From Candidatus Methanoperedens sp. (GTDB lineage: Archaea > Halobacteriota > Methanosarcinia > Methanosarcinales > Methanoperedenaceae): a stretch of 32,000 nt of DNA. The stretch is from contig JAPZAR010000036.1 in assembly GCA_027460535.1 (NCBI GenBank), positions 69,519 through 101,518 of the forward strand. Reading direction: 5' to 3'. The position numbers and the translations under genes were made by a program. The first letter of the stretch is position 1. Each line of letters starts with the position of its first letter. The notes under the pieces were generated by a model that made no database searches, was not told the DNA's origin, and saw only the letters and a list, made by a program, of their open reading frames with translations. This document shows, one piece after another, positions 9,339-29,616 of the stretch.

Positions 9339-10169
9339 TCATGTAATAATCTCGCATCCTTCGGGGTGTACTATCACCGTGTGTTCTGCCTGGGCTACAA
9401 TTTCGTTGCTTTTTTCAATAAGCTCATGATATTCCCGAAGCCCTCTCAGGTCTTCCATCCTTATACCTGGAATCCAGCGGCGCGAAAAAGGAAGGCATCC
9501 AATGCTTTTTCTCAGTTCAGCACTCACTTTTGTCCTTCCCGTTAGTGCAAAAATGTGGGATTTTCCGTATCTTATATCTCCTTTGCCATATGTGGCAAAA
9601 GGTTCAATCGCAAATACCATGTCCTTTTTCATTTTCTGGCTGAAGACGCTCCCATAATTCGGAACAGTGATACCTGAGTGCAGGTCATATCGCTCCAGGC
9701 TGTGCCCCGTCAGATCCCTGATCGGGTTGAAACCGTATCTCTTGATCGTGCTTTCAATTATCTTCCCGATCGTTCTTGTCTGGATACCGTCCTTAGTGGA
9801 TGTAATGGCATTCCCAAGCGCCTCTTCGCAGGCTTTTATCAGACAGCAGTGCTTATCTGTCCCTATCTCGATAGTGCTTGCTGTATCCGCGATATACCCT
9901 TCGATATGAACACCAACGTCTATTTTTACAACATCACCTTTTTTGAAGCATGGTGCGCCGTCTTCGGGTGTGTAATGTGATGCAATCTCATTGACAGAAA
10001 TATTGCAGGGGAATGCAGGTTTTCCCCCCAGCTCTCTTATCCTGTTCTCGGCAAATTCGGCGATCTCAATAAGCGGAACATCTGCTCTTACCCTGGAAAT
10101 GGCTTCGTTCCTCGCACTTGCGGCTATTTTTCCTGCTTCGATATAGTATTCATGGATAGTTTCGTTCAT
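9339..10169 (-). CDS. map: type II methionine aminopeptidase
   Basis: 276 aa. Pita-bread metal-ligand blocks are present: DVVKIDVGVHIEGYIADTA, LTGHSLERYDLH, FAIEPFAT, AEHTVIV. It has the archaeal/eukaryal-type insert. A 4-nt overlap with the upstream EamA gene indicates an operon. Confidence 0.9.
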   Translation of the reverse strand: MNETIHEYYIEAGKIAASARNEAISRVRADVPLIEIAEFAENRIRELGGKPAFPCNISVNEIASHYTPEDGAPCFKKGDVVKIDVGVHIEGYIADTASTIEIGTDKHCCLIKACEEALGNAITSTKDGIQTRTIGKIIESTIKRYGFNPIRDLTGHSLERYDLHSGITVPNYGSVFSQKMKKDMVFAIEPFATYGKGDIRYGKSHIFALTGRTKVSAELRKSIGCLPFSRRWIPGIRMEDLRGLREYHELIEKSNEIVAQAEHTVIVHPEGCEIIT

Positions 10170-11032
10170 CTGTCCGTAGCAACTAATGCTGCACCCGCCA
10201 ATATAAATGCCCCCCCGATTACCTCTGGAAATGCAAGCCTTTCATTAAGAATAAGAACTGATAATACAATAGCACTTACTGGCTCTATCAACCCGAGGAT
10301 GCTCGCACTTGCAGCTCTCACTTTCGCCAATCCGTTAAAATAAAGTGAAACGGCAAGTATGGTCGGGAATATAGCTAAAAGTATGAGAAAAATTACGTTG
10401 GAGGAAAAGACATCCATTGGTACAAGACCCGATGGGAGGAGGACGAGCGCGGCTACCAGGAAACTCCAGAAAGCCTGGGTGTAACCTGAATATGTGGAGC
10501 TGATGAACTTTGAGGTCATTATCTGGAAGCCATAAGCTATGCCAGAAAGTATGCCTGCTATTATCCCGATGGATTGCAGCGAGAAATCAGGTTTTTCAGG
10601 GCCAACAATGAACAGGATGCCTGCGATGGATAGAAGAAGGGCTATCAACCCTTTCTTAGTTGCCCTTTCCTTCAAAAGCAGTGGCGAAAGTACCGTAACA
10701 TATACAGGCGCTGTATATAAAAGTAGAACTGCAATAGAGACCGATGCATTCAATATGGCCTCGAAATACGTAAGCATGGTTGCTGCCTGAAGAATACTGA
10801 ACATGACCAGATAGGATTTCTTATTTTTAAGGTGTACTCTATAAAGATTTCCTGAAATCAATAATACAGCGAACAGTATTATGAATGCAATGGTCACCCT
10901 GTAAAAAATAATGCTCTGGGCTGACATTCCAATGATCATTTTCCCAAATATTCCTGCAAGTCCCCAGAGTATAGCTGCTGCAATTATCTCCCCGTAGCCT
11001 GCAAAGATATTCCGGATTTGCGCTGGGTTCAT
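10166..11032 (-). CDS. EamA/DMT-superfamily transporter
   Basis: 288 aa with about ten hydrophobic helices arranged as two repeated halves, typical of drug/metabolite transporters. Confidence 0.8.
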   Translation of the reverse strand: MNPAQIRNIFAGYGEIIAAAILWGLAGIFGKMIIGMSAQSIIFYRVTIAFIILFAVLLISGNLYRVHLKNKKSYLVMFSILQAATMLTYFEAILNASVSIAVLLLYTAPVYVTVLSPLLLKERATKKGLIALLLSIAGILFIVGPEKPDFSLQSIGIIAGILSGIAYGFQIMTSKFISSTYSGYTQAFWSFLVAALVLLPSGLVPMDVFSSNVIFLILLAIFPTILAVSLYFNGLAKVRAASASILGLIEPVSAIVLSVLILNERLAFPEVIGGAFILAGAALVATDR

Positions 11033-11172
11033 GCGGTTCTGAAGATTCTATTAGGCAAAATAGGTTTCTTTTTTAGAACTGCAGCCGAATGCAGGTTTCC
11101 GGCATCAGCGACTATCACTGACTTTCTATTTATACAGTTCGCTCATTTTTCCGGATAATTCCGGATGACGGT

Positions 11173-12285
11173 TCATGCCAACGCTTTCATGAATCTCTCT
11201 TTGATCTCGTGCGCCGACAGGGGGATTTCCTTGCATTTCATGTTTACAGGCTTCACTATCACATGAACAAAACCTGCTTTGCGCTGCAACGCCTCTCTCA
11301 ATTCCTCAATGGTATGCACTTTGACGGTATCTCCTATCCCGCTTGCCTTTGCGAGAAATTCGAGATCAATCTGCCTGAAGGTTGCCGTTTCCTGGTTTCC
11401 CGTGGAGCCGTATGCTGCATTATCTATGGCAACCACAGTCATGTTTTCGGAAGCGCAGGCGCCGATAGCTGTCAGAGCGTTCGGATTCATAAGGAGACTC
11501 CCATCTCCATCGATCACATACACATGCCTTTTCTGCACAATGGAAAGACCGAGACCTATGGAAGACACCAAACCCATCGAACCGAGCATATAGAAATTAA
11601 ACTTCCTGTCCCTGATCTCAAATAATTCCTTTGAAGGGATGCCGAGGTTCGCGACAATGATATCATCATTAACCAGTGAGGTAATTACCTTAATTGCCTC
11701 ATATCTTGTCATTGCAGGTTTCCTTATTTCCGACCTTAACCTCAATTCCGTTGTTCGGGGGGTTATCTCAAGAGGCTCAGACACTTCACACATGGAGCCT
11801 TCCCATACTGCAGGTGAAACCAATATGACATGAGGTCTTGAATTGTCAAAAGAATCCCTGATCGCAGTATCGATCTCATCCAGTTCATCCTGGGTATTTA
11901 AGATCGTATATTTTATATCTGCGGCATCCAGGATTGCAGGAAGCCTTTTACCGAACTGCCATTGGGCTTCGATCGATTCTCTGTAAACGCCGCGCCAGCT
12001 TGCCAGCACTGGTAAAGGTATCCCGTATGTCAAATTGAGGGATTCCAGGGCATTTATCATATTGCCTATCCCTGTGCTCTGGATCACCATAACAGGTCTT
12101 CCGCCCCCCAGGTATATGCCTGCGCATATTCCCACACCGTTCTCTTCTCGGGTCAAAGGAAGCGTTGTCATATTTTTGCCGATCTGAGGGAGAAGGGCTT
12201 TGATCCTATCGCACGGAAGCGTAGCTGCAAAATTTATCCTGTTCTTTTTCAGGATTTCAACGACTTTGCTCTCCGGACTTATCAT
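11173..12285 (-). CDS. comDE: sulfopyruvate decarboxylase, fused alpha/beta (ComDE), coenzyme M biosynthesis
   Basis: 370-aa TPP-enzyme-like protein with an N-terminal ComD-like half and a C-terminal half carrying the TPP motif GDGSLLMN...N. It shares one nt (TAATG) with the upstream cysteate-synthase-like gene, the arrangement known from Methanosarcina. Phosphonopyruvate decarboxylase is the alternative call. Confidence 0.75.
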   Translation of the reverse strand: MISPESKVVEILKKNRINFAATLPCDRIKALLPQIGKNMTTLPLTREENGVGICAGIYLGGGRPVMVIQSTGIGNMINALESLNLTYGIPLPVLASWRGVYRESIEAQWQFGKRLPAILDAADIKYTILNTQDELDEIDTAIRDSFDNSRPHVILVSPAVWEGSMCEVSEPLEITPRTTELRLRSEIRKPAMTRYEAIKVITSLVNDDIIVANLGIPSKELFEIRDRKFNFYMLGSMGLVSSIGLGLSIVQKRHVYVIDGDGSLLMNPNALTAIGACASENMTVVAIDNAAYGSTGNQETATFRQIDLEFLAKASGIGDTVKVHTIEELREALQRKAGFVHVIVKPVNMKCKEIPLSAHEIKERFMKALA

Positions 12286-23604: not shown

Positions 23605-24831
23605 ATGGCCACACCCGGCAAATATGATATACTGATTTACTTGCATTTCAACCAGCCAGTTACATTTAACACTCTTGAAAATATTCTCCGGGGAAACATA
23701 CTGTTTGAAGACCTGAACACCCAGATATTGTACAGGCATTTGAGGGAATTGATAGATGGTGAGCTTGTATTGAAAATACCCTTATCTGCTAAAAGAGGTT
23801 ACGAATACTCCCTGAATCTTGAAAACGATTCACTCATCAATCACCTTTCCTTCCTTATCTGGTGCAGGAAAGAAGGTATTGACTACAATAGGCTCCTGGC
23901 TCCCAGAACAGAAACTCTAATCTTTAATATCCTGAAATTTGAAAAAATATCCCATGAGAATCTTTTACAGAGTTCAAAAATGTCAGCAAAAACCCTCAGG
24001 AAGCATATAAGGGCTCTTATCGATAACCGGTTCATTCACACAATCCAACAAAAACCGATGGTTTTCGAGTTCCTTCTAAATGATGTAACGCTGTGGTATC
24101 TGACAATGAAAGGTCTGCCAGTTCCGGATATGGAAAGCAAATGCAAAGATTCTATCTCCAATATGGACGCCAATAGAGATATTACCGGATCAAGGGAGAT
24201 TATGGATAAACTCATAAAACTGCACATTTACTCTTCCACAGTCACAGAAGGAAATACTGCCTCCAATGAAGATGTTGAACGCATCATAAATGACCTTCCC
24301 ACCAACCTTACACCAAAGGAAATAATCGAGATTAAAAACACAAAAGATGCTCTGGATCATATAATAGAAGTGTATGAAGATACGGACTTGAATATTGACC
24401 TTATTAAAACCACTCATCAGATACTGATGCGCGGATTGATAAAAGAAGCAGGATTGTTCTTTGCGTCTTCATCAAAACGAATTGTAGGTTCTAAATTGAA
24501 ATTACCATCGACCAACAAAGAGATTGAATATTTGATGAGGTCGCTCATAAGTTATTATAATCTTAACAAAAACCACATTCATCCTCTCATACTTGGTTCG
24601 ATATTCCACTTTCTTTTTGTTTCTATCCATCCATTCAAAGACGGTAACGGCAGAGCGGCACGACTTATTCATTCTTTCATACTGCTAAAGAATGGATACC
24701 CTATCTTTGCTTTTAACCCTGAAAAAAAATACGAGTATTTCAACTATCTTGAGAAAGGAAGGGAGTCGGATGTAAGTGATTTTATCAGGTTCATAATAGA
24801 TGAACACAGGAAAATACTGCCTGAAAGGTAA
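23605..24831 (+). CDS. Fic-family protein (AMPylase-type motif) with long N-terminal winged-helix-like extension
   Basis: The Fic motif HPFKDGNGRAAR lies at nt 24628-24663. The auto-inhibitory-type [ST]xxxE[GN] motif (STVTEG) lies at nt 24235-24252. The N-terminal 200 aa contain two HTH-like repeats (...YRHLRELIDGELV..., ...LRKHIRALIDNRFI...). The gene is visibly AT-rich. Confidence 0.9.
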   Translation: MATPGKYDILIYLHFNQPVTFNTLENILRGNILFEDLNTQILYRHLRELIDGELVLKIPLSAKRGYEYSLNLENDSLINHLSFLIWCRKEGIDYNRLLAPRTETLIFNILKFEKISHENLLQSSKMSAKTLRKHIRALIDNRFIHTIQQKPMVFEFLLNDVTLWYLTMKGLPVPDMESKCKDSISNMDANRDITGSREIMDKLIKLHIYSSTVTEGNTASNEDVERIINDLPTNLTPKEIIEIKNTKDALDHIIEVYEDTDLNIDLIKTTHQILMRGLIKEAGLFFASSSKRIVGSKLKLPSTNKEIEYLMRSLISYYNLNKNHIHPLILGSIFHFLFVSIHPFKDGNGRAARLIHSFILLKNGYPIFAFNPEKKYEYFNYLEKGRESDVSDFIRFIIDEHRKILPER

Positions 24832-25073: not shown

Positions 25074-25223
25074 ATGGTTGAAATAATTGACAAACGCAGA
25101 ACCGAAAATGTCAATAAGAAGGAAAAAGGATGTACATTAACGCAAGAAACAATATCAGAACAGCAGAGTTTCTTGAACAACAATAGATTCAGGGAAGATT
25201 TGACCAACAATATACGGGAGTGA
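25074..25223 (+). CDS. possible 49-aa upstream ORF preceding cooS
   Basis: GGAGGT (25061-25066) plus 7 nt precedes ATG 25074. Hand translation: MVEIIDKRRTENVNKKEKGCTLTQETISEQQSFLNNNRFREDLTNNIRE, stop TGA at 25221-25223, 4 nt before the cooS ATG. It is hydrophilic with no family recognised, and is below the track cut-off. Confidence 0.25.
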   Translation: MVEIIDKRRTENVNKKEKGCTLTQETISEQQSFLNNNRFREDLTNNIRE

Positions 25224-25227
25224 TATT

Positions 25228-27108
25228 ATGGGACCGGTTAGCGCACATAGATCAATAATAGAATTGCACAATATATTGAACAAAGACAAAGTAACGAACA
25301 CTTTTGATAGAGCAGAAGCCCAGGGAAAACGCTGCTCTTTCTGCGAGCAGGGGATAAGCTGCCAGCTTTGCAGCAACGGCCCGTGCAGGATTAAACCGGG
25401 CGCAGAGAGGGGGGTTTGCGGCATAGATGCAGATGGTATGGCTATGAGGAACCTTATGTTCCTGAATACCATGGGAACAGCAACATATACATTCCATGCA
25501 AAGGAAGTTGCAAAAACACTCAAAGCAACAGCATTGGGAAAAACACCTTTCCAGATCAAGGATGAAGCAAAGCTTCGTGGTCTTGCCGGGAAGCTTGGGA
25601 TAAAAACTGATAAGGTGGGTACCAAAGAAATTGCAATTTCAGTAGCAGATGCAATGATCACTGCAATAAACTCTGATTCAGACAGCGAGCTTTCCAATGT
25701 TCTTCTCTTTGCCCCAAAGTCAAGGATAGAACTATGGAGAAAGCTTGGCATCCTTCCGGGAGGACCGCTTCACGAAGTAATGGATTCCGTATGCAGCACA
25801 ATGACAAATATCGACGGGGATTATGTTTCACTTGCAAAGAAGGCTTTGCGCCTCGGTATTTCCTGCATATACGGCTCTCAGATACCGCTTGAGATGGGAC
25901 AGGACATACTTTTCGGGACTCCCCAGCCCCATGCGGTCAATGTGGACCTCGGGATCATAGACCCCGCCTACGTTAATGTCGCCGCCAACGGTCATGAACC
26001 CTTTATCGGAGCAGCTCTCATCAAAGCTGCCCATGAGGCAAAGAACCAGGAAAATGCAAAGAAGGCGGGCGCTAAAGGCCTGCATATCATTGGTTCTATC
26101 GAGACTGGCCAGGAACTTGTGCAGAGATTCGAGATAGACGATGTATTCGTGGGCATGACCGGTAACTGGTTATCGATCGAGCCAGCGCTTGCAACAGGCG
26201 GCATCGATGTTTTTGCCATGGACATGAACTGCTCGCCTCCGGCAATGGGAGTGTATCAGGAAAAATACAACACCTCCCTTATTTCAGTCTCAAAACTCGT
26301 CAATGTTCCGGGAATGAAAGACCATATTGTATATAAACCGGAAGATTCAGCTGCTCAGGCGCAAAAACTCATAGATATCGCTATTGAGAATTTCAAGAAG
26401 AGAAAAGGAAAAGCCACAAACCCGTCAAGAATTAAGCAGAACGCTGTGATCGGGTTCTCGGCGGAAGCATGCCTCGGGGCGCTTGGCGGCACTCTTGACC
26501 CGCTTCTGGACGTAATAAAAAAGGGAACTTTGAAAGGTGTTGTGGCTCTTGTGAGCTGTACAACGCTGCGAGATAGCGGTCAGGATGTAAATACACTTAA
26601 AATGGCACGCGAACTTATCAAACGGGATATACTGGTCATCAGCGCAGGATGCGGGAATGCTGCCCTTCAGGTGGGAGGACTTACCACGCTTGAGGCAAAG
26701 CAGGAAGCAGGTCCTGGTCTAAAGGCGGTATGTGAATTGCTCAAGATCCCGCCAGTGCTGAGCTTTGGCACTTGCACGGATACCGGAAGAATTATTTCGC
26801 TTGTTACGGCAGTGTCTGATGCTCTCGGCGTTGACCCGTCTGAATTGCCTGTTGCAGTGACAGCTCCTGAGTACATGGAACAGAAGGCAACGATCGATGC
26901 GATATTCGCGCTGGCTTTTGGCCTGTATACACATGTGGCGCCTATGCCGCCGGTGGCAGGAGCTCCCCGTCTTGTGAAACTCTTAACTTCTGACCTCGAA
27001 GGGATAACAGGCGGGAAGATTGCCGTAGAGACGGACATGGTTGACGCGGCAAATGGCATAGAGGCCCATATCATGAAGAAACGGATGGCACTGGGGCTTC
27101 CAGCGTAA
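25228..27108 (+). CDS. cooS: anaerobic Ni,Fe carbon monoxide dehydrogenase catalytic subunit
   Basis: 626 aa. The N-terminal cluster region is CSFCEQGISCQLCSNGPCRI...GVCG. C-cluster ligand contexts are all present: NGHEPF, MDMNCSPP, LVSCTT, SAGCGNAA, FGTCTDTGR, plus APEYMEQKA. There is no signal peptide. Confidence 0.9.
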   Translation: MGPVSAHRSIIELHNILNKDKVTNTFDRAEAQGKRCSFCEQGISCQLCSNGPCRIKPGAERGVCGIDADGMAMRNLMFLNTMGTATYTFHAKEVAKTLKATALGKTPFQIKDEAKLRGLAGKLGIKTDKVGTKEIAISVADAMITAINSDSDSELSNVLLFAPKSRIELWRKLGILPGGPLHEVMDSVCSTMTNIDGDYVSLAKKALRLGISCIYGSQIPLEMGQDILFGTPQPHAVNVDLGIIDPAYVNVAANGHEPFIGAALIKAAHEAKNQENAKKAGAKGLHIIGSIETGQELVQRFEIDDVFVGMTGNWLSIEPALATGGIDVFAMDMNCSPPAMGVYQEKYNTSLISVSKLVNVPGMKDHIVYKPEDSAAQAQKLIDIAIENFKKRKGKATNPSRIKQNAVIGFSAEACLGALGGTLDPLLDVIKKGTLKGVVALVSCTTLRDSGQDVNTLKMARELIKRDILVISAGCGNAALQVGGLTTLEAKQEAGPGLKAVCELLKIPPVLSFGTCTDTGRIISLVTAVSDALGVDPSELPVAVTAPEYMEQKATIDAIFALAFGLYTHVAPMPPVAGAPRLVKLLTSDLEGITGGKIAVETDMVDAANGIEAHIMKKRMALGLPA

Positions 27109-27135
27109 CAGAATCCATCCCAAATAGAAGAAATT

Positions 27136-27168
27136 GGTGCGCCGGACCAGAGCGCACCTTAATTTTAA
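27136..27168 (+). terminator. hairpin plus T-rich tract between cooS and the cytochrome gene
   Basis: GGTGCGC (27136-27142) pairs with GCGCACC (27152-27158) around a 9-nt loop, followed by TTAATTTTAAT. A TATA-like gatatata (about 27174-27181) and an SD-like GGAGGG (27192-27197) follow, ahead of ATG 27205. Confidence 0.35.
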
Positions 27169-27204
27169 TGCGGGGATATATAGTAACGTATGGAGGGTTA
27201 ATAG

Positions 27205-28497
27205 ATGATCAAGCGATTCATTGGAATAGCTATTGTTTTTTTGTTTTTGACAGGATTGTCTGCAGCAGTTGAAAACGCTTGTGTGGGCTGTCATACATCG
27301 GTGGGGGTCACAAAAGGGATAATCAATGACTGGAAAGAGAGCAAACATGCGTTAAAGAATGTGACATGCGATAAATGCCATGGGGCGGAAGAGGGGGATA
27401 AGGACTCATTAAGTCATAATGGTTTTCTGATCACAAAAACGCCATCTCCTAAAGACTGTGCCAAATGCCATCCGGACCAGGTAAATCAATTCGGTGCGGG
27501 GAAACACAGCCTAGGCTGGACGAAGATGGAGGTTGCAGCCCGATATAAGGCAATCCCGAATGATAAAATGCGGGCAAGTATGTGTGAAGGCTGCCATAGC
27601 GTAGGAAAAGTTTATTCTGACGGTTCTACTGGTAAATGCGACTCGTGCCATACGAGGCATGTATTCAGTAAAGTTGAAGCACGCCAGCCCGAAGCATGTG
27701 AGACCTGTCACATGGGACTTGACCATGAACAGATAGAATATTACAAGAAATCAAAACATGGGATGATCCAGGAGACGAACAGAACGAGTTCCCGCGCCCC
27801 GGCTTGTTTTACCTGCCATATGGACGGCGGCACTCATGATGTCAGCCAGGGAATAACCATAGGCACAGTATCGCAGGGAGCGTTCATAAGCAACAAGAGC
27901 AGCGGAAATGATTATGTCAAAGATGGAAACGGCATTGTAATGAGAGCAATAACCCAGGAAGAGTTCGATACTAACAGGGAAAAGATGCTATCTATATGTG
28001 CACGCTGCCATTCCAGGAATTTTGCACAAAATGTTCTTGAAAATGCGGATGAGATAAAGGTCCAGGCTGACAAAAAAGTGGGAGAAGGCATAACAATAAT
28101 CGAAGGACTTTATAAAGATGGCTTGCTTGACCCCATGCCTGAAAACAGGACACCAAATCCCGTTGCGGGGGATAAACTAACTCTCACCGGGCAGCAGACA
28201 TACTCCAATACCTCAGGAATAGAATCGGAATTCTTTGAAATGTATAAATACGCGCTCGTTCATTCCTGGAAAGGGGCGTATCATATGAACCCTGACTATG
28301 CCCACTGGTATGGATGGGCACAGATTAATCTTGACCTTGAAAAAATAAAGTCTGAGAACAGGACATTACGCAGGATAGCAGAGCTTGAAAAAGCTCAAAA
28401 GACAATGGGAGAAGGAACAAAAGCAGCAGCAGGATTCGAAGTTACAATTGCAGCTTTCGGGACAATAGTCTTCTTAATCCTGGTCAGGAAGAAATAA
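27205..28497 (+). CDS. exported octahaem c-type cytochrome, hydroxylamine-oxidoreductase (HAO)-family-like, with C-terminal membrane anchor
   Basis: The signal peptide is MIKRFIGIAIVFLFLTGLSAA. There are eight CxxCH motifs (CVGCH, CDKCH, CAKCH, CEGCH, CDSCH, CETCH, CFTCH, CARCH). The segment GKCDSCHTRHVFSKVEARQPEACETCHMGLDHEQIEYYKKSKHG reads like the HAO-family core. The C-terminal tail is AGFEVTIAAFGTIVFLILVRKK. Confidence 0.85.
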   Translation: MIKRFIGIAIVFLFLTGLSAAVENACVGCHTSVGVTKGIINDWKESKHALKNVTCDKCHGAEEGDKDSLSHNGFLITKTPSPKDCAKCHPDQVNQFGAGKHSLGWTKMEVAARYKAIPNDKMRASMCEGCHSVGKVYSDGSTGKCDSCHTRHVFSKVEARQPEACETCHMGLDHEQIEYYKKSKHGMIQETNRTSSRAPACFTCHMDGGTHDVSQGITIGTVSQGAFISNKSSGNDYVKDGNGIVMRAITQEEFDTNREKMLSICARCHSRNFAQNVLENADEIKVQADKKVGEGITIIEGLYKDGLLDPMPENRTPNPVAGDKLTLTGQQTYSNTSGIESEFFEMYKYALVHSWKGAYHMNPDYAHWYGWAQINLDLEKIKSENRTLRRIAELEKAQKTMGEGTKAAAGFEVTIAAFGTIVFLILVRKK

Positions 28498-28507
28498 CAA
28501 AAAAAAT

Positions 28508-29080
28508 ATGAAAGATATGGAACTTGAAAGTGAGGACATTCAGGCAGCGTTAGAGGAATTGCATCAATATGTTGACATAACTGAAGAAGACCTCAAGAAA
28601 ATTTATGTAATTGCTCTTCGGCATGCAAAAGAAAGGCTCACTCTCAAAGTTCCTGTTAAAGATGTGATGACCGGGAATGCGATATGCATCAGTAAAGATG
28701 CCGATATTCATGAAGCAGCCAGAATCCTTTCAGAAAACAGGATAAGCGGTCTGCCTGTTGTCAATGAAGAAAAGCGGCTGATAGGGATTGTAACAGAAGC
28801 TGATATCCTTTATTCAGCAGGAATGGAAAAAAGCCATAATTTTGGGGATATTTTAAGGAATATTCTTGGTGAGCCACATCCGAAAATCAGGAATGGGAGC
28901 AAGGTCGAAGAGATAATGACTACCAGGGTAATAACAACATCACCTGACAGGGATATCAGGGAAGTGGCAAAGATACTGGATGAGAAAAGGATCAAAAGGC
29001 TTCCCGTTGTGGATAAAAATAATAAGCTTATTGGGATTATTTCAAGGGCTGACATTCTGAGATACCTGGGGAAACAATGA
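28508..29080 (+). CDS. CBS-domain pair protein
   Basis: 190 aa with two CBS repeats (VKDVMTGNAICISKDADIHEAARILSENRISGLPVV...GIVTEADIL and VEEIMTTRVITTSPDRDIREVAKILDEKRIKRLPVV...GIISRADIL). It starts 10 nt after the cytochrome. Confidence 0.85.
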   Translation: MKDMELESEDIQAALEELHQYVDITEEDLKKIYVIALRHAKERLTLKVPVKDVMTGNAICISKDADIHEAARILSENRISGLPVVNEEKRLIGIVTEADILYSAGMEKSHNFGDILRNILGEPHPKIRNGSKVEEIMTTRVITTSPDRDIREVAKILDEKRIKRLPVVDKNNKLIGIISRADILRYLGKQ

Positions 29081-29616
29081 AAGAATATTTCCTGAAAATG
29101 AGAGGTGGTGCCAGAAGCCCTCCGGGGGTTGGTATTTCCGAGGTGATGTGGGCATTTCTCGGTTCTGTCACAGGTATCGGCATATTGGGATATCTTTCAT
29201 CGATGTACTTTGAACCCAGAGATCAGACAATGATAATTGGTTCCTTCGGGGCATCTGCCGTCTTAATTTATTCTGCAATCAAAAGTCCCCTGGCACAGCC
29301 AAGGAACCTTATCGGTGGACATATTCTCTCAGGACTTGCGGGGGTATTATGCTACCAGATATTTGGAAATGTAATATGGGCTGCAGCAGCTCTTGCTGTA
29401 TCATTTTCCATAGTTTTAATGCTTGCCACCAAGACGCTTCACCCGCCGGGAGGTGCAACTGCATTAATAGCAGTAATCGGCGGTGAAAAAATTCACGATC
29501 TTGGCTTTCTCTATGCCTTCCTGCCTGCAGGATTGGGAGCTTTCATTCTTCTTATTGTTGCTCTGTTAGTGAATAATCTTTCAAAAGATAGAAAATATCC
29601 AGAATACTGGTTATAG
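29077..29616 (+). CDS. HPP-family integral membrane protein
   Basis: 179 aa, about 4-5 TM, with the eponymous HPPGGATAL motif. A 4-nt ATGA overlap with the CBS gene indicates translational coupling; CBS and HPP are often fused in other organisms. Confidence 0.85.
   Translation: MKEYFLKMRGGARSPPGVGISEVMWAFLGSVTGIGILGYLSSMYFEPRDQTMIIGSFGASAVLIYSAIKSPLAQPRNLIGGHILSGLAGVLCYQIFGNVIWAAAALAVSFSIVLMLATKTLHPPGGATALIAVIGGEKIHDLGFLYAFLPAGLGAFILLIVALLVNNLSKDRKYPEYWL

Follow-up and report, generated by a model that had tools for sequence, protein, structure and literature searches.

We describe a block of four genes on the + strand of a 32,000-nucleotide stretch of Candidatus Methanoperedens sp. DNA (GenBank assembly GCA_027460535.1, contig JAPZAR010000036.1, positions 69,519 to 101,518 of the forward strand; hereafter the window, with positions counted from its first letter), in which a gene initially annotated as cooS, the catalytic subunit of carbon monoxide dehydrogenase (CODH), is followed by genes for an octahaem cytochrome c of the HAO family, a CBS-pair protein, and an HPP-family membrane protein. 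Judged by its sequence, the first product is a CooS-V-type protein, not a canonical Ni-CODH. Our best reading, which we hold at slightly better than even confidence, is that the block is a nitrogen-oxide handling module of nitrate-respiring Methanoperedens rather than a CO-oxidising one. The initial annotation had proposed a nitrite/hydroxylamine unit fed by CO or ferredoxin; its nitrogen-oxide theme stands, carried by the CooS-V class of the first protein, the HAO without a cross-link tyrosine, and their recurrent linkage, whereas the supply of electrons from CO is not supported.

Open reading frames (ORFs) of the window were screened by a Pfam family search, an NCBIfam scan, and a search for hydrophobic segments and sequence motifs. 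The ORF list confirms four successive genes (Table 1), and their coordinates bear out the spacing given before: 96 nt from cooS-V to the cytochrome gene, 10 nt from the cytochrome to the CBS gene, and an ATGA overlap between the CBS and HPP genes. Profile hidden Markov model assignment, run on all four proteins, returns the Pfam families Prismane, Multi-haem_cyto (PF13447), a CBS pair, and TM_HPP.

The closest solved relative of the CooS-like protein is CooS-V of C. hydrogenoformans (7b7q; E 1.3e-237; it scores 793 bits, where the best canonical CODH reaches 421), to which it is ~64% identical over the full length. That enzyme has the CODH fold, an Fe/S/O hybrid cluster, and no Ni cluster; it neither oxidises CO nor reduces CO2, and it reduces NH2OH slowly (PMC9311411). 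Its hybrid-cluster ligands are His259, Glu295, Cys338, Cys449, Cys480, Cys521, and Glu556, and the Cys295-to-Glu replacement is a synapomorphy of the CooS-V subclade that co-occurs with a CxxC [2Fe-2S] D-cluster (PMC9311411). In the window protein, Cys295 (CODH-II numbering) is replaced by Glu292, with GSIETG aligned to GSIESG of 7b7q and to GMCCTG of the canonical CODH 6t7j, and the other ligands (His256, Cys335, Cys444, Cys475, Cys516, and Glu550, the last within YMEQK) all align with 7b7q, where they correspond to His259, Cys338, Cys449, Cys480, Cys521, and Glu556. A type III CxxC D-cluster is found as CSFC at residues 36-39 (Cys36/Cys39), the predicted B-cluster ligands are Cys45/48/53/64, and the acid-base residue His93 has Tyr87 (TATYTFH) in its place. 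Because all CooS-V ligands including Glu292 are present, together with CSFC and Tyr87, the protein is placed with CooS-V and apart from the true Ni,Fe-CODHs, whose ligand set (His261, Cys295/333/446/476/526, His93) is not found in it, Cys295 being Glu and His93 being Tyr.

The name cooS is therefore misleading for a protein in which a C-cluster ligand is replaced by Glu, and the homology to hybrid-cluster protein that had been pointed out earlier holds more strongly than stated, as the protein belongs to the CooS-V/D-1 class: in group D-1 the catalytic residues are identical to those of Hcp (Inoue et al. 2019; PMC6344411), and a C295E mutant of a true CODH loses both Ni and CO oxidation (PMC9311411, PMC6344411). 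In the NCBIfam scan the protein passes the cut-off of TIGR01702, the model for CODH catalytic subunits, which fails to discriminate the CooS-V subclass. No hydrophobic segment was found in the protein, in keeping with the earlier observation that it has no signal peptide, and it is predicted to be cytoplasmic. The ligand set, the CxxC D-cluster, and the Tyr in place of His93 are shared with C. hydrogenoformans CooS-V and group D-1, but the window protein is archaeal and lies beside an HAO-like cytochrome and a CBS-HPP pair, whereas published CooS-V/D-1 gene contexts are uninformative or contain Zn-dehydrogenase/HypAB (PMC9311411, PMC6344411).

By sequence and predicted fold, the cytochrome belongs to the octahaem HAO family. 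It matches PF13447 with E 8e-31, and its sequence matches in the PDB are HAO family only (6h5l to 6hif), headed by kustc0458 of Kuenenia stuttgartiensis (6h5l, E 6e-36). An AlphaFold (AF2) model made with 56 homologues (predicted local distance difference test, pLDDT, 84.6; predicted template modelling score, pTM, 0.80) has HAO-family structures as all of its top 11 Foldseek matches (template modelling, TM, scores 0.65-0.70), the first being the “reducing HAO-like” 6h5l (E 2.4e-17, TMq 0.70), with the NrfA and ONR families far behind. The stretch CHMGLDH aligns with CHSGVDH of N. europaea HAO (NeHAO); its D173/H174, which from HAO structures we take to be the distal Asp-His pair at the catalytic haem, is invariant in the 56 homologues, as is the motif KGAYHxxPDxHWxG. 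The cross-link residue Tyr467 of NeHAO aligns with His367/Trp368, where kustc0458 has Trp, and the nearby Tyr365 (Y/W/H) and Tyr369 (Y/F/L/N) vary across the homologues, so that, on these alignments, the conserved cross-link tyrosine of the oxidative (P460) HAO subclass is not found in the cytochrome clade. Tyr369 (HWYG) had come up as a candidate cross-link from a gapped HMMER alignment to KsHOX and was rejected on account of this variation and of the ungapped register, which matches the Trp of kustc0458.

The sequence, the predicted fold, and the variable Tyr positions all agree with the earlier assignment to an HAO family without the tyrosine cross-link. HAOs without the cross-link are reductases: kustc0458 converts nitrite to NO and leaves hydroxylamine unoxidised (PMC8042395). 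By analogy, the present cytochrome would be a reductase too. Eight haems and Trp at the cross-link position are common to kustc0458 and the window cytochrome; the latter is only ~27% identical, has no kustc0457-like partner gene, carries a C-terminal membrane tail, and comes from an archaeal host. A hydrophobic N-terminal signal segment (residues 1-29, Sec-type), 8 CxxCH motifs, and a C-terminal hydrophobic segment (residues 407-429) were all recovered by the motif and hydrophobicity search, as previously described, and the protein is predicted to be exported, membrane-tethered, and outward-facing. By eye, most homologues end in PGF, a hydrophobic helix, and basic residues, a PGF-CTERM-like arrangement ((P/S/A)GF overall), with AGF in place of PGF in the tail of the window cytochrome (28410-28497). 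The NCBIfam scan gave no PGF-CTERM model match to this tail, whose sequence suggests an archaeosortase sorting signal and hence a surface protein held by a lipid anchor, not just by a helix.

The last two genes form a cassette. The HPP protein covers positions 3-157 of the 157 of PF04982, has hydrophobic segments, carries its HPP motif at residues 122-124, and matches an NCBI protein of Candidatus Methanoperedens sp. with 100% identity. The CBS protein is probably its cytoplasmic regulatory partner, translationally coupled to it through the ATGA overlap. HPP members of cyanobacteria and plastids transport nitrite (Maeda et al. 2014); two Kuenenia HPP genes that rise under nitrite limitation have been proposed as nitrite transporters, and a D. 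desulfuricans HPP gene sits in the NO-induced hcpR1 cluster. The window protein shares full-length PF04982 and the HPP motif with the cyanobacterial and plastid transporters and, by analogy, is a putative channel for nitrite or a related small solute; it differs in that the CBS pair is here a separate, overlapping gene and in that its nearest relatives (~78%) are found in Nitrospirota, in unrelated contexts. Relatives 75-80% identical occur in Nitrospirota and Thermodesulfovibrionales, again as overlapping CBS-HPP pairs (loci L170-L173), in one case beside glnE and in another beside a protoglobin and a multihaem gene. Because the same overlapping pair recurs in these contexts unrelated to the block, we regard CBS-HPP as a self-contained, horizontally shared cassette, and the sequence similarity points to recent inter-domain transfer between Methanoperedens and Nitrospirota.

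Table 1. Features of the block and its immediate surroundings in the window
Feature	Positions	Strand	Details
Hybrid-cluster protein of CooS-V type (structural group D-1) with a CODH scaffold, 626 aa	25228-27108	+	best solved relative 7b7q
HAO-family octahaem cytochrome c, 430 aa	27205-28497	+	PF13447, fold match, 8 CxxCH
Soluble CBS-pair protein, 190 aa	28508-29080	+	CBS E 6e-37, two domains; no hydrophobic segment
HPP-family integral membrane protein, 179 aa	29077-29616	+	PF04982 E 4.8e-60
GC-rich hairpin, 7-bp core stem, then TTAATTTTAAT	27136-27168	+	28 nt after cooS-V stop
49-codon upstream ORF	25074-25223	+	AAGGAGG Shine-Dalgarno (strong); other frame; ends 4 nt before cooS-V ATG

We followed the linkage of these genes from two sides. 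On the cytochrome side, one genome per GTDB species was scanned and the flanks of the best 80 of 355 relatives were searched with the other three proteins; on the CooS-V side, 80 metagenome loci seeded with CooS-V were scanned. In eleven loci the cytochrome shares at least 65% identity with that of the window; these loci are all labelled Methanoperedens or Methanoperedenaceae except L014 (Syntrophorhabdus), and among them HPP lies within 3.5 kb in 9/11, CBS in 8/11, and CooS-V is adjacent in 5/11, making cytochrome plus HPP the most widely conserved core. The order CooS-V, cytochrome, CBS, HPP is seen in L005, L006, and L007 on the cytochrome side, in L094 and L095 on the CooS-V side, and also in L001; the same string is also present on contig JAPZAT010000050.1 of GCA_027460495.1 and on a 101-kb ENA contig. 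Partial forms are the CooS-V-cytochrome pair without CBS-HPP (L008, L091, L092), cytochrome-CBS-HPP (L002, L012, L014), and cytochrome-HPP (L010), and CooS-V lies at the opposite end in L013 (cytochrome-CBS-HPP-CooS-V) and follows CBS-HPP on the short contig L096. From the CooS-V side, linkage is confined to loci at least 72% identical to the window CooS-V, among them L098, in which a 72% CooS-V precedes a cytochrome fragment (48%) from another subclade. Of the 80 CooS-V metagenome loci, 79 show the Glu motif [S/A]IETG, the pattern search having missed it in L145. Neither CBS nor HPP lies near the cytochrome in any of the ~70 more distant loci.

One variant replaces the neighbour rather than the order. 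In L016 (M. nitroreducens Mnv1, 9339-11501), four same-strand genes stand between the cytochrome and CBS-HPP, encoding TusA, a 310-aa NIR_SIR plus 4Fe-4S reductase, an 87-aa protein of unknown type, and an amidohydrolase, and L011 has the same 2.2-kb spacing from cytochrome to CBS. By sequence, the cytoplasmic partner in the L016 variant would be a siroheme-type reductase in place of CooS-V; neither TusA nor NIR_SIR is present in the window. As a separate observation, tblastn splits its match to the HAO-like gene into two segments, overlapping or offset, in L016 (8001-9286), L014 (564-1863), and L061 (3147-4179), which suggests frameshifts, due either to pseudogenes or to assembly errors.

The surroundings of the block change while the block itself persists. 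Nucleotide homology of the window to related loci is confined to 25237-29616, which is exactly the block, and the flanks consist of an unusual Nar with a canonical cooS (BLZ2-type), the mtr operon (L092), or housekeeping genes (window), so that the pair or the quartet is found in at least three unrelated genomic contexts. That the linkage survives changes in both order and context speaks for selection. The adjacency is thus conserved within Methanoperedenaceae, in several gene orders, but not outside the family, save for one loose case. A general association of CooS-V with HAO-like genes across prokaryotes was considered and rejected, as none was seen outside Methanoperedens-like genomes in the 80 + 80 loci except in two Thermoleophilia (L033, 789-9740; L054, 1-9179), where a CooS-V-type gene (61-66% identical, with GSIETG and YMEQK) lies 5-7 kb upstream of an HAO-like gene on the same strand. 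The HAO-like cytochrome of these two loci has a PKD domain, and an rRNA methyltransferase gene and an unknown gene lie between the pair.

A published counterpart of the block is the cooS_2-hao cluster of “Ca. Methanoperedens BLZ2” (L006), which is drawn in a 2026 Nat Commun paper that counts cooS_2 as a Ni-CODH (PMC13079737). It is orthologous to the window block, with 83-88% protein identity and the same order of CooS-V, Hao-like, CBS, and HPP genes; its neighbours in BLZ2 are an unusual NarGH and a canonical cooS, in contrast to the housekeeping genes of the window, and the BLZ2 block is duplicated on a mobile element. Published transcript levels cover the first two genes: under CH4/NO3-, CO/NO3-, and CO/CO2, respectively, cooS_2 stands at 602, 3613, and 614 transcripts per million (TPM) and hao at 17, 185, and 39 (PMC13079737), a step down of about 16-35-fold across the gap between them. 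Both rise 6-10-fold under CO/NO3- together with Nar, whose cluster stands at TPM of about 60, 550, and 240, and both fall again without nitrate, while nrfA falls under CO/NO3- (PMC13079737). The supplement text of that paper gave no expression values for CBS and HPP of BLZ2 (PADDDONK_01844 and PADDDONK_01845), and a term search of its text and supplements, with Supplementary Data 10 (structural classification) lying outside the search, gave no mention of the CBS and HPP genes or of CooS-V/D-1.

A conserved hairpin occupies the same gap. Its core in the window (27136-27158) with the T-rich tail has a folding energy of -15.5 kcal/mol (z = -2.3), and a hairpin is present in 7/7 loci compared, with compensatory changes; in L001 and L098 the stem sequences differ. 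Between the hairpin and the cytochrome gene come an A/T-rich stretch and a GGAGGG Shine-Dalgarno. The hairpin is likely a partial terminator or 3'-end stabiliser, and the BLZ2 step-down with parallel regulation fits partial termination or differential stability, with separate promoters also possible. The earlier caveat that the hairpin may separate cooS from the genes downstream is apt, given its conservation and the large drop in BLZ2 transcripts; cooS_2 and hao respond alike over the three conditions.

Because the best-characterised relatives of each protein act on nitrite, NO, or hydroxylamine, we read the block as a nitrogen-oxide module. Extracellular nitrite from nitrate reductase would be converted to NO, hydroxylamine, or ammonium by the outward-facing octahaem, as in cross-link-free HAOs; the CBS-gated HPP protein would be the membrane passage for nitrite or a related small nitrogen species; and the cytoplasmic CooS-V enzyme, probably fed by ferredoxin, would remove the NO or hydroxylamine that reaches the cytoplasm, taking the job that Hcp has in other anaerobes and in the proposed reverse hydroxylamine:ubiquinone redox module (reverse-HURM) pathway. 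The hairpin 3' of cooS-V would make its transcript far more abundant, with all genes responding to the same conditions. The L016 insert, which places another cytoplasmic small-oxyanion reductase in a variant of the block, counts in favour of this reading. One study did not identify hcp in the Methanoperedens that host the Lilac Borg; the Hcp of the Borg itself has been suggested to protect the host from nitrosative stress.

By analogy, the scheme that the block most resembles is reverse-HURM, itself a proposal even in Nautilia, in which nitrite is reduced by the periplasmic Tyr-less epsilon-Hao of Nautilia profundicola, free hydroxylamine being a possible product, and Hcp completes the process in the cytoplasm. 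Both pair an outward-facing Tyr-less HAO with a cytoplasmic hybrid-cluster enzyme in a nitrate-reducing anaerobe. The HAO part was found in the block, and the cytoplasmic partner is an Hcp analogue built on a CODH scaffold (CooS-V) instead of Hcp, with very low NH2OH activity in the sole CooS-V assayed. The block also differs from reverse-HURM in that its genes are physically clustered and include the putative CBS-HPP channel, and in that a NapC/NrfH-type tetrahaem quinol dehydrogenase was not found, the window containing one multihaem ORF and no second. A stronger version, a dedicated archaeal route in which the octahaem would make hydroxylamine or NO, the HPP channel would pass nitrite or an intermediate, and CooS-V would finish the reduction in the cytoplasm, is one we advance only tentatively and think somewhat improbable.

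Several points weigh against a nitrogen-oxide module. The assayed CooS-V reduces NH2OH with a kcat of 0.13 s-1 and a kcat/KM of 20 M-1 s-1, below Hcp and true CODH, and a term search of the C. hydrogenoformans CooS-V paper did not find NO (PMC9311411). The genes also occur solitarily (cytochrome alone in L009, CooS-V alone in L093 and L097), and ~60 CooS-V and ~70 HAO-like loci outside Methanoperedenaceae are without such linkage; confinement to one family leaves room for simple inheritance, and the association may reflect synteny specific to this lineage. Separate transcription is allowed by the hairpin and a possible promoter before the cytochrome gene, and the block contains no quinol dehydrogenase or other electron donor for the cytochrome. 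Finally, the BLZ2 induction came with CO plus nitrate, leaving a link to CO possible (PMC13079737), and genetic work on M. acetivorans has been taken to mean that D-1 proteins take part in CO removal (PMC6344411).

These last two points, with the TIGR01702 score and the proximity of the BLZ2 genes to a canonical cooS and an unusual Nar, are what speaks for a genuine CODH (or a ferredoxin-linked enzyme) that supplies the HAO-like cytochrome with low-potential electrons from CO, with which nitrite or hydroxylamine would be reduced. We hold this to be quite unlikely. The Glu and Tyr that replace Cys295 and His93, the solved and assayed relative that has the same ligands, no Ni cluster, and no activity on CO or CO2 (PMC9311411), and the C295E mutant without Ni and CO oxidation all argue against CO chemistry, as does the fall of BLZ2 cooS_2 and hao when nitrate is removed though CO stays (PMC13079737). 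The block also contains no membrane conduit that would join a cytoplasmic enzyme to an outward cytochrome, and none of cooF, cooC, Ech hydrogenase, or acetyl-CoA synthase is found among the window ORFs scanned against Pfam, an absence already recorded in the initial annotation; its proposal that CO electrons feed the module is accordingly not supported. A less improbable alternative, which we nonetheless consider unlikely, is that CooS-V, the cytochrome, and CBS-HPP are functionally uncoupled units brought together by shared descent and local rearrangement and transcribed separately. The near-restriction of the linkage to Methanoperedenaceae, the solitary loci, the independent CBS-HPP cassette of Nitrospirota, and the conserved hairpin and T-run with the BLZ2 TPM drop would all suit it. 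Against it stand the occurrence of CooS-V on either side of cytochrome-CBS-HPP (L013 and L096 versus the window), the unrelated contexts with homology that stops exactly at the block borders, the adjacency retained in the distant L098, the two Thermoleophilia loci, and the parallel behaviour of cooS_2 and hao in BLZ2.

Methanoperedens genomes are rich in multihaem cytochromes for extracellular electron transfer, and the octahaem might be a general cytochrome of this kind (for example, for metal reduction), with no nitrogen catalysis and with incidental neighbours; a metagenome-assembled genome from an iron-reducing enrichment, FeB_1, has the cytochrome alone (L009). The eight CxxCH motifs with the invariant distal Asp-His pair, the fold match to catalytic HAOs, and the HPP gene linked in 9/11 loci make this highly improbable. 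Least probable of the alternatives, by a narrow measure, is that the block handles sulfur oxyanions (sulfite or thiosulfate) instead of nitrogen oxides. Methanogen relatives are poisoned by sulfite, which some multihaem nitrite reductases reduce as well, and the Mnv1-type locus L016 places TusA and a sulfite/nitrite (NIR_SIR-type) reductase between the cytochrome and CBS-HPP. The characterised relatives of the block proteins cited here (HAO family, HPP, CooS-V/Hcp) all act on nitrogen species, however, and the window has neither of these two genes.

All four proteins belong to known families, and the adjacency of cooS and hao already appears in a figure and a table (PMC13079737). Relative to the searchable literature, what is new is the recognition, by sequence, of the hao-linked “CooS” as a CooS-V-type, non-CODH enzyme; the finding that CooS-V, a Tyr-less HAO, and CBS-HPP form a recurrent, rearranged block in Methanoperedenaceae; and a pointer to the physiological role of the CooS-V class, as its linkage, conserved yet rearranged, with genes for an HAO-like reductase and a putative channel for nitrite points, in a testable way, to NO/hydroxylamine chemistry for CooS-V. 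Recent work counts such genes as Ni-CODHs when arguing that Methanoperedens oxidises CO; because the hao-linked copy is without a ligand for the Ni,Fe C-cluster, it may be necessary to revise CODH inventories and the way in which “five induced CooS” is read. The block further suggests how Methanoperedens may cope with nitrosative by-products of nitrate respiration. Were the dedicated route true, it would give the whole CooS-V/D-1 class its first physiological role and constitute a gene-clustered, Hcp-independent reverse-HURM, and part of the Methanoperedens “CODH” inventory would be nitrogen-cycle machinery.

The start of the cooS-V gene had been placed at 25074, which is wrong: the true ATG is at 25228, and 25074 opens a separate 49-codon ORF in another frame with its stop codon at 25221-25223. 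Public gene calls on the source contig likewise give a 626-aa protein and a separate 49-aa ORF (L175). The short ORF has no match in the family scan and is not conserved among related loci in the DNA comparison, where homology starts only at ~25209-25237; a strain-specific leader peptide and an ORF arisen by chance are both conceivable. We considered and rejected a frameshift or N-terminal extension linking 25074 to the CooS ORF: the upstream ORF is unrelated to the N-terminal extension of L001 and absent elsewhere, and the 626-aa product aligns from residue 4 with full-length 7b7q.

Upstream of the block, the window encodes a glutamate dehydrogenase, subunits of an ADP-forming acetyl-CoA synthetase, and a Fic protein; downstream is an Old Yellow Enzyme-type flavoprotein, and the remainder of the window is housekeeping. 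The Fic-domain protein directly upstream (23605-24831, 408 aa) has a weak, sub-threshold HTH_20 match at its N terminus, and BLZ2 has an AsnC/MarR-type regulator in its place. In the BLZ2-type loci L001 and L006 (473-7896), the canonical CooS (GSMCTG) lies beside narG and is divergent from the CooS-V-hao block, with DUF2114, DUF1894, a ferredoxin-like gene, and the AsnC/MarR regulator between them, and a 77-aa ferredoxin gene lies 3' of HPP, with no equivalent in the window ORF list. In L002, an NrfHA pair lies ~5 kb from the block genes as a separate unit. The CooS-V neighbourhoods of Methanosarcinaceae and bacteria offer weak leads only (an NMT1_2 binding protein, a PadR-type regulator, and HdrA/FlpD-like genes); in all three contigs of L085-L087 (Methanosarcinaceae), an NMT1_2 (nitrate/sulfonate/bicarbonate-type) substrate-binding gene precedes CooS-V.

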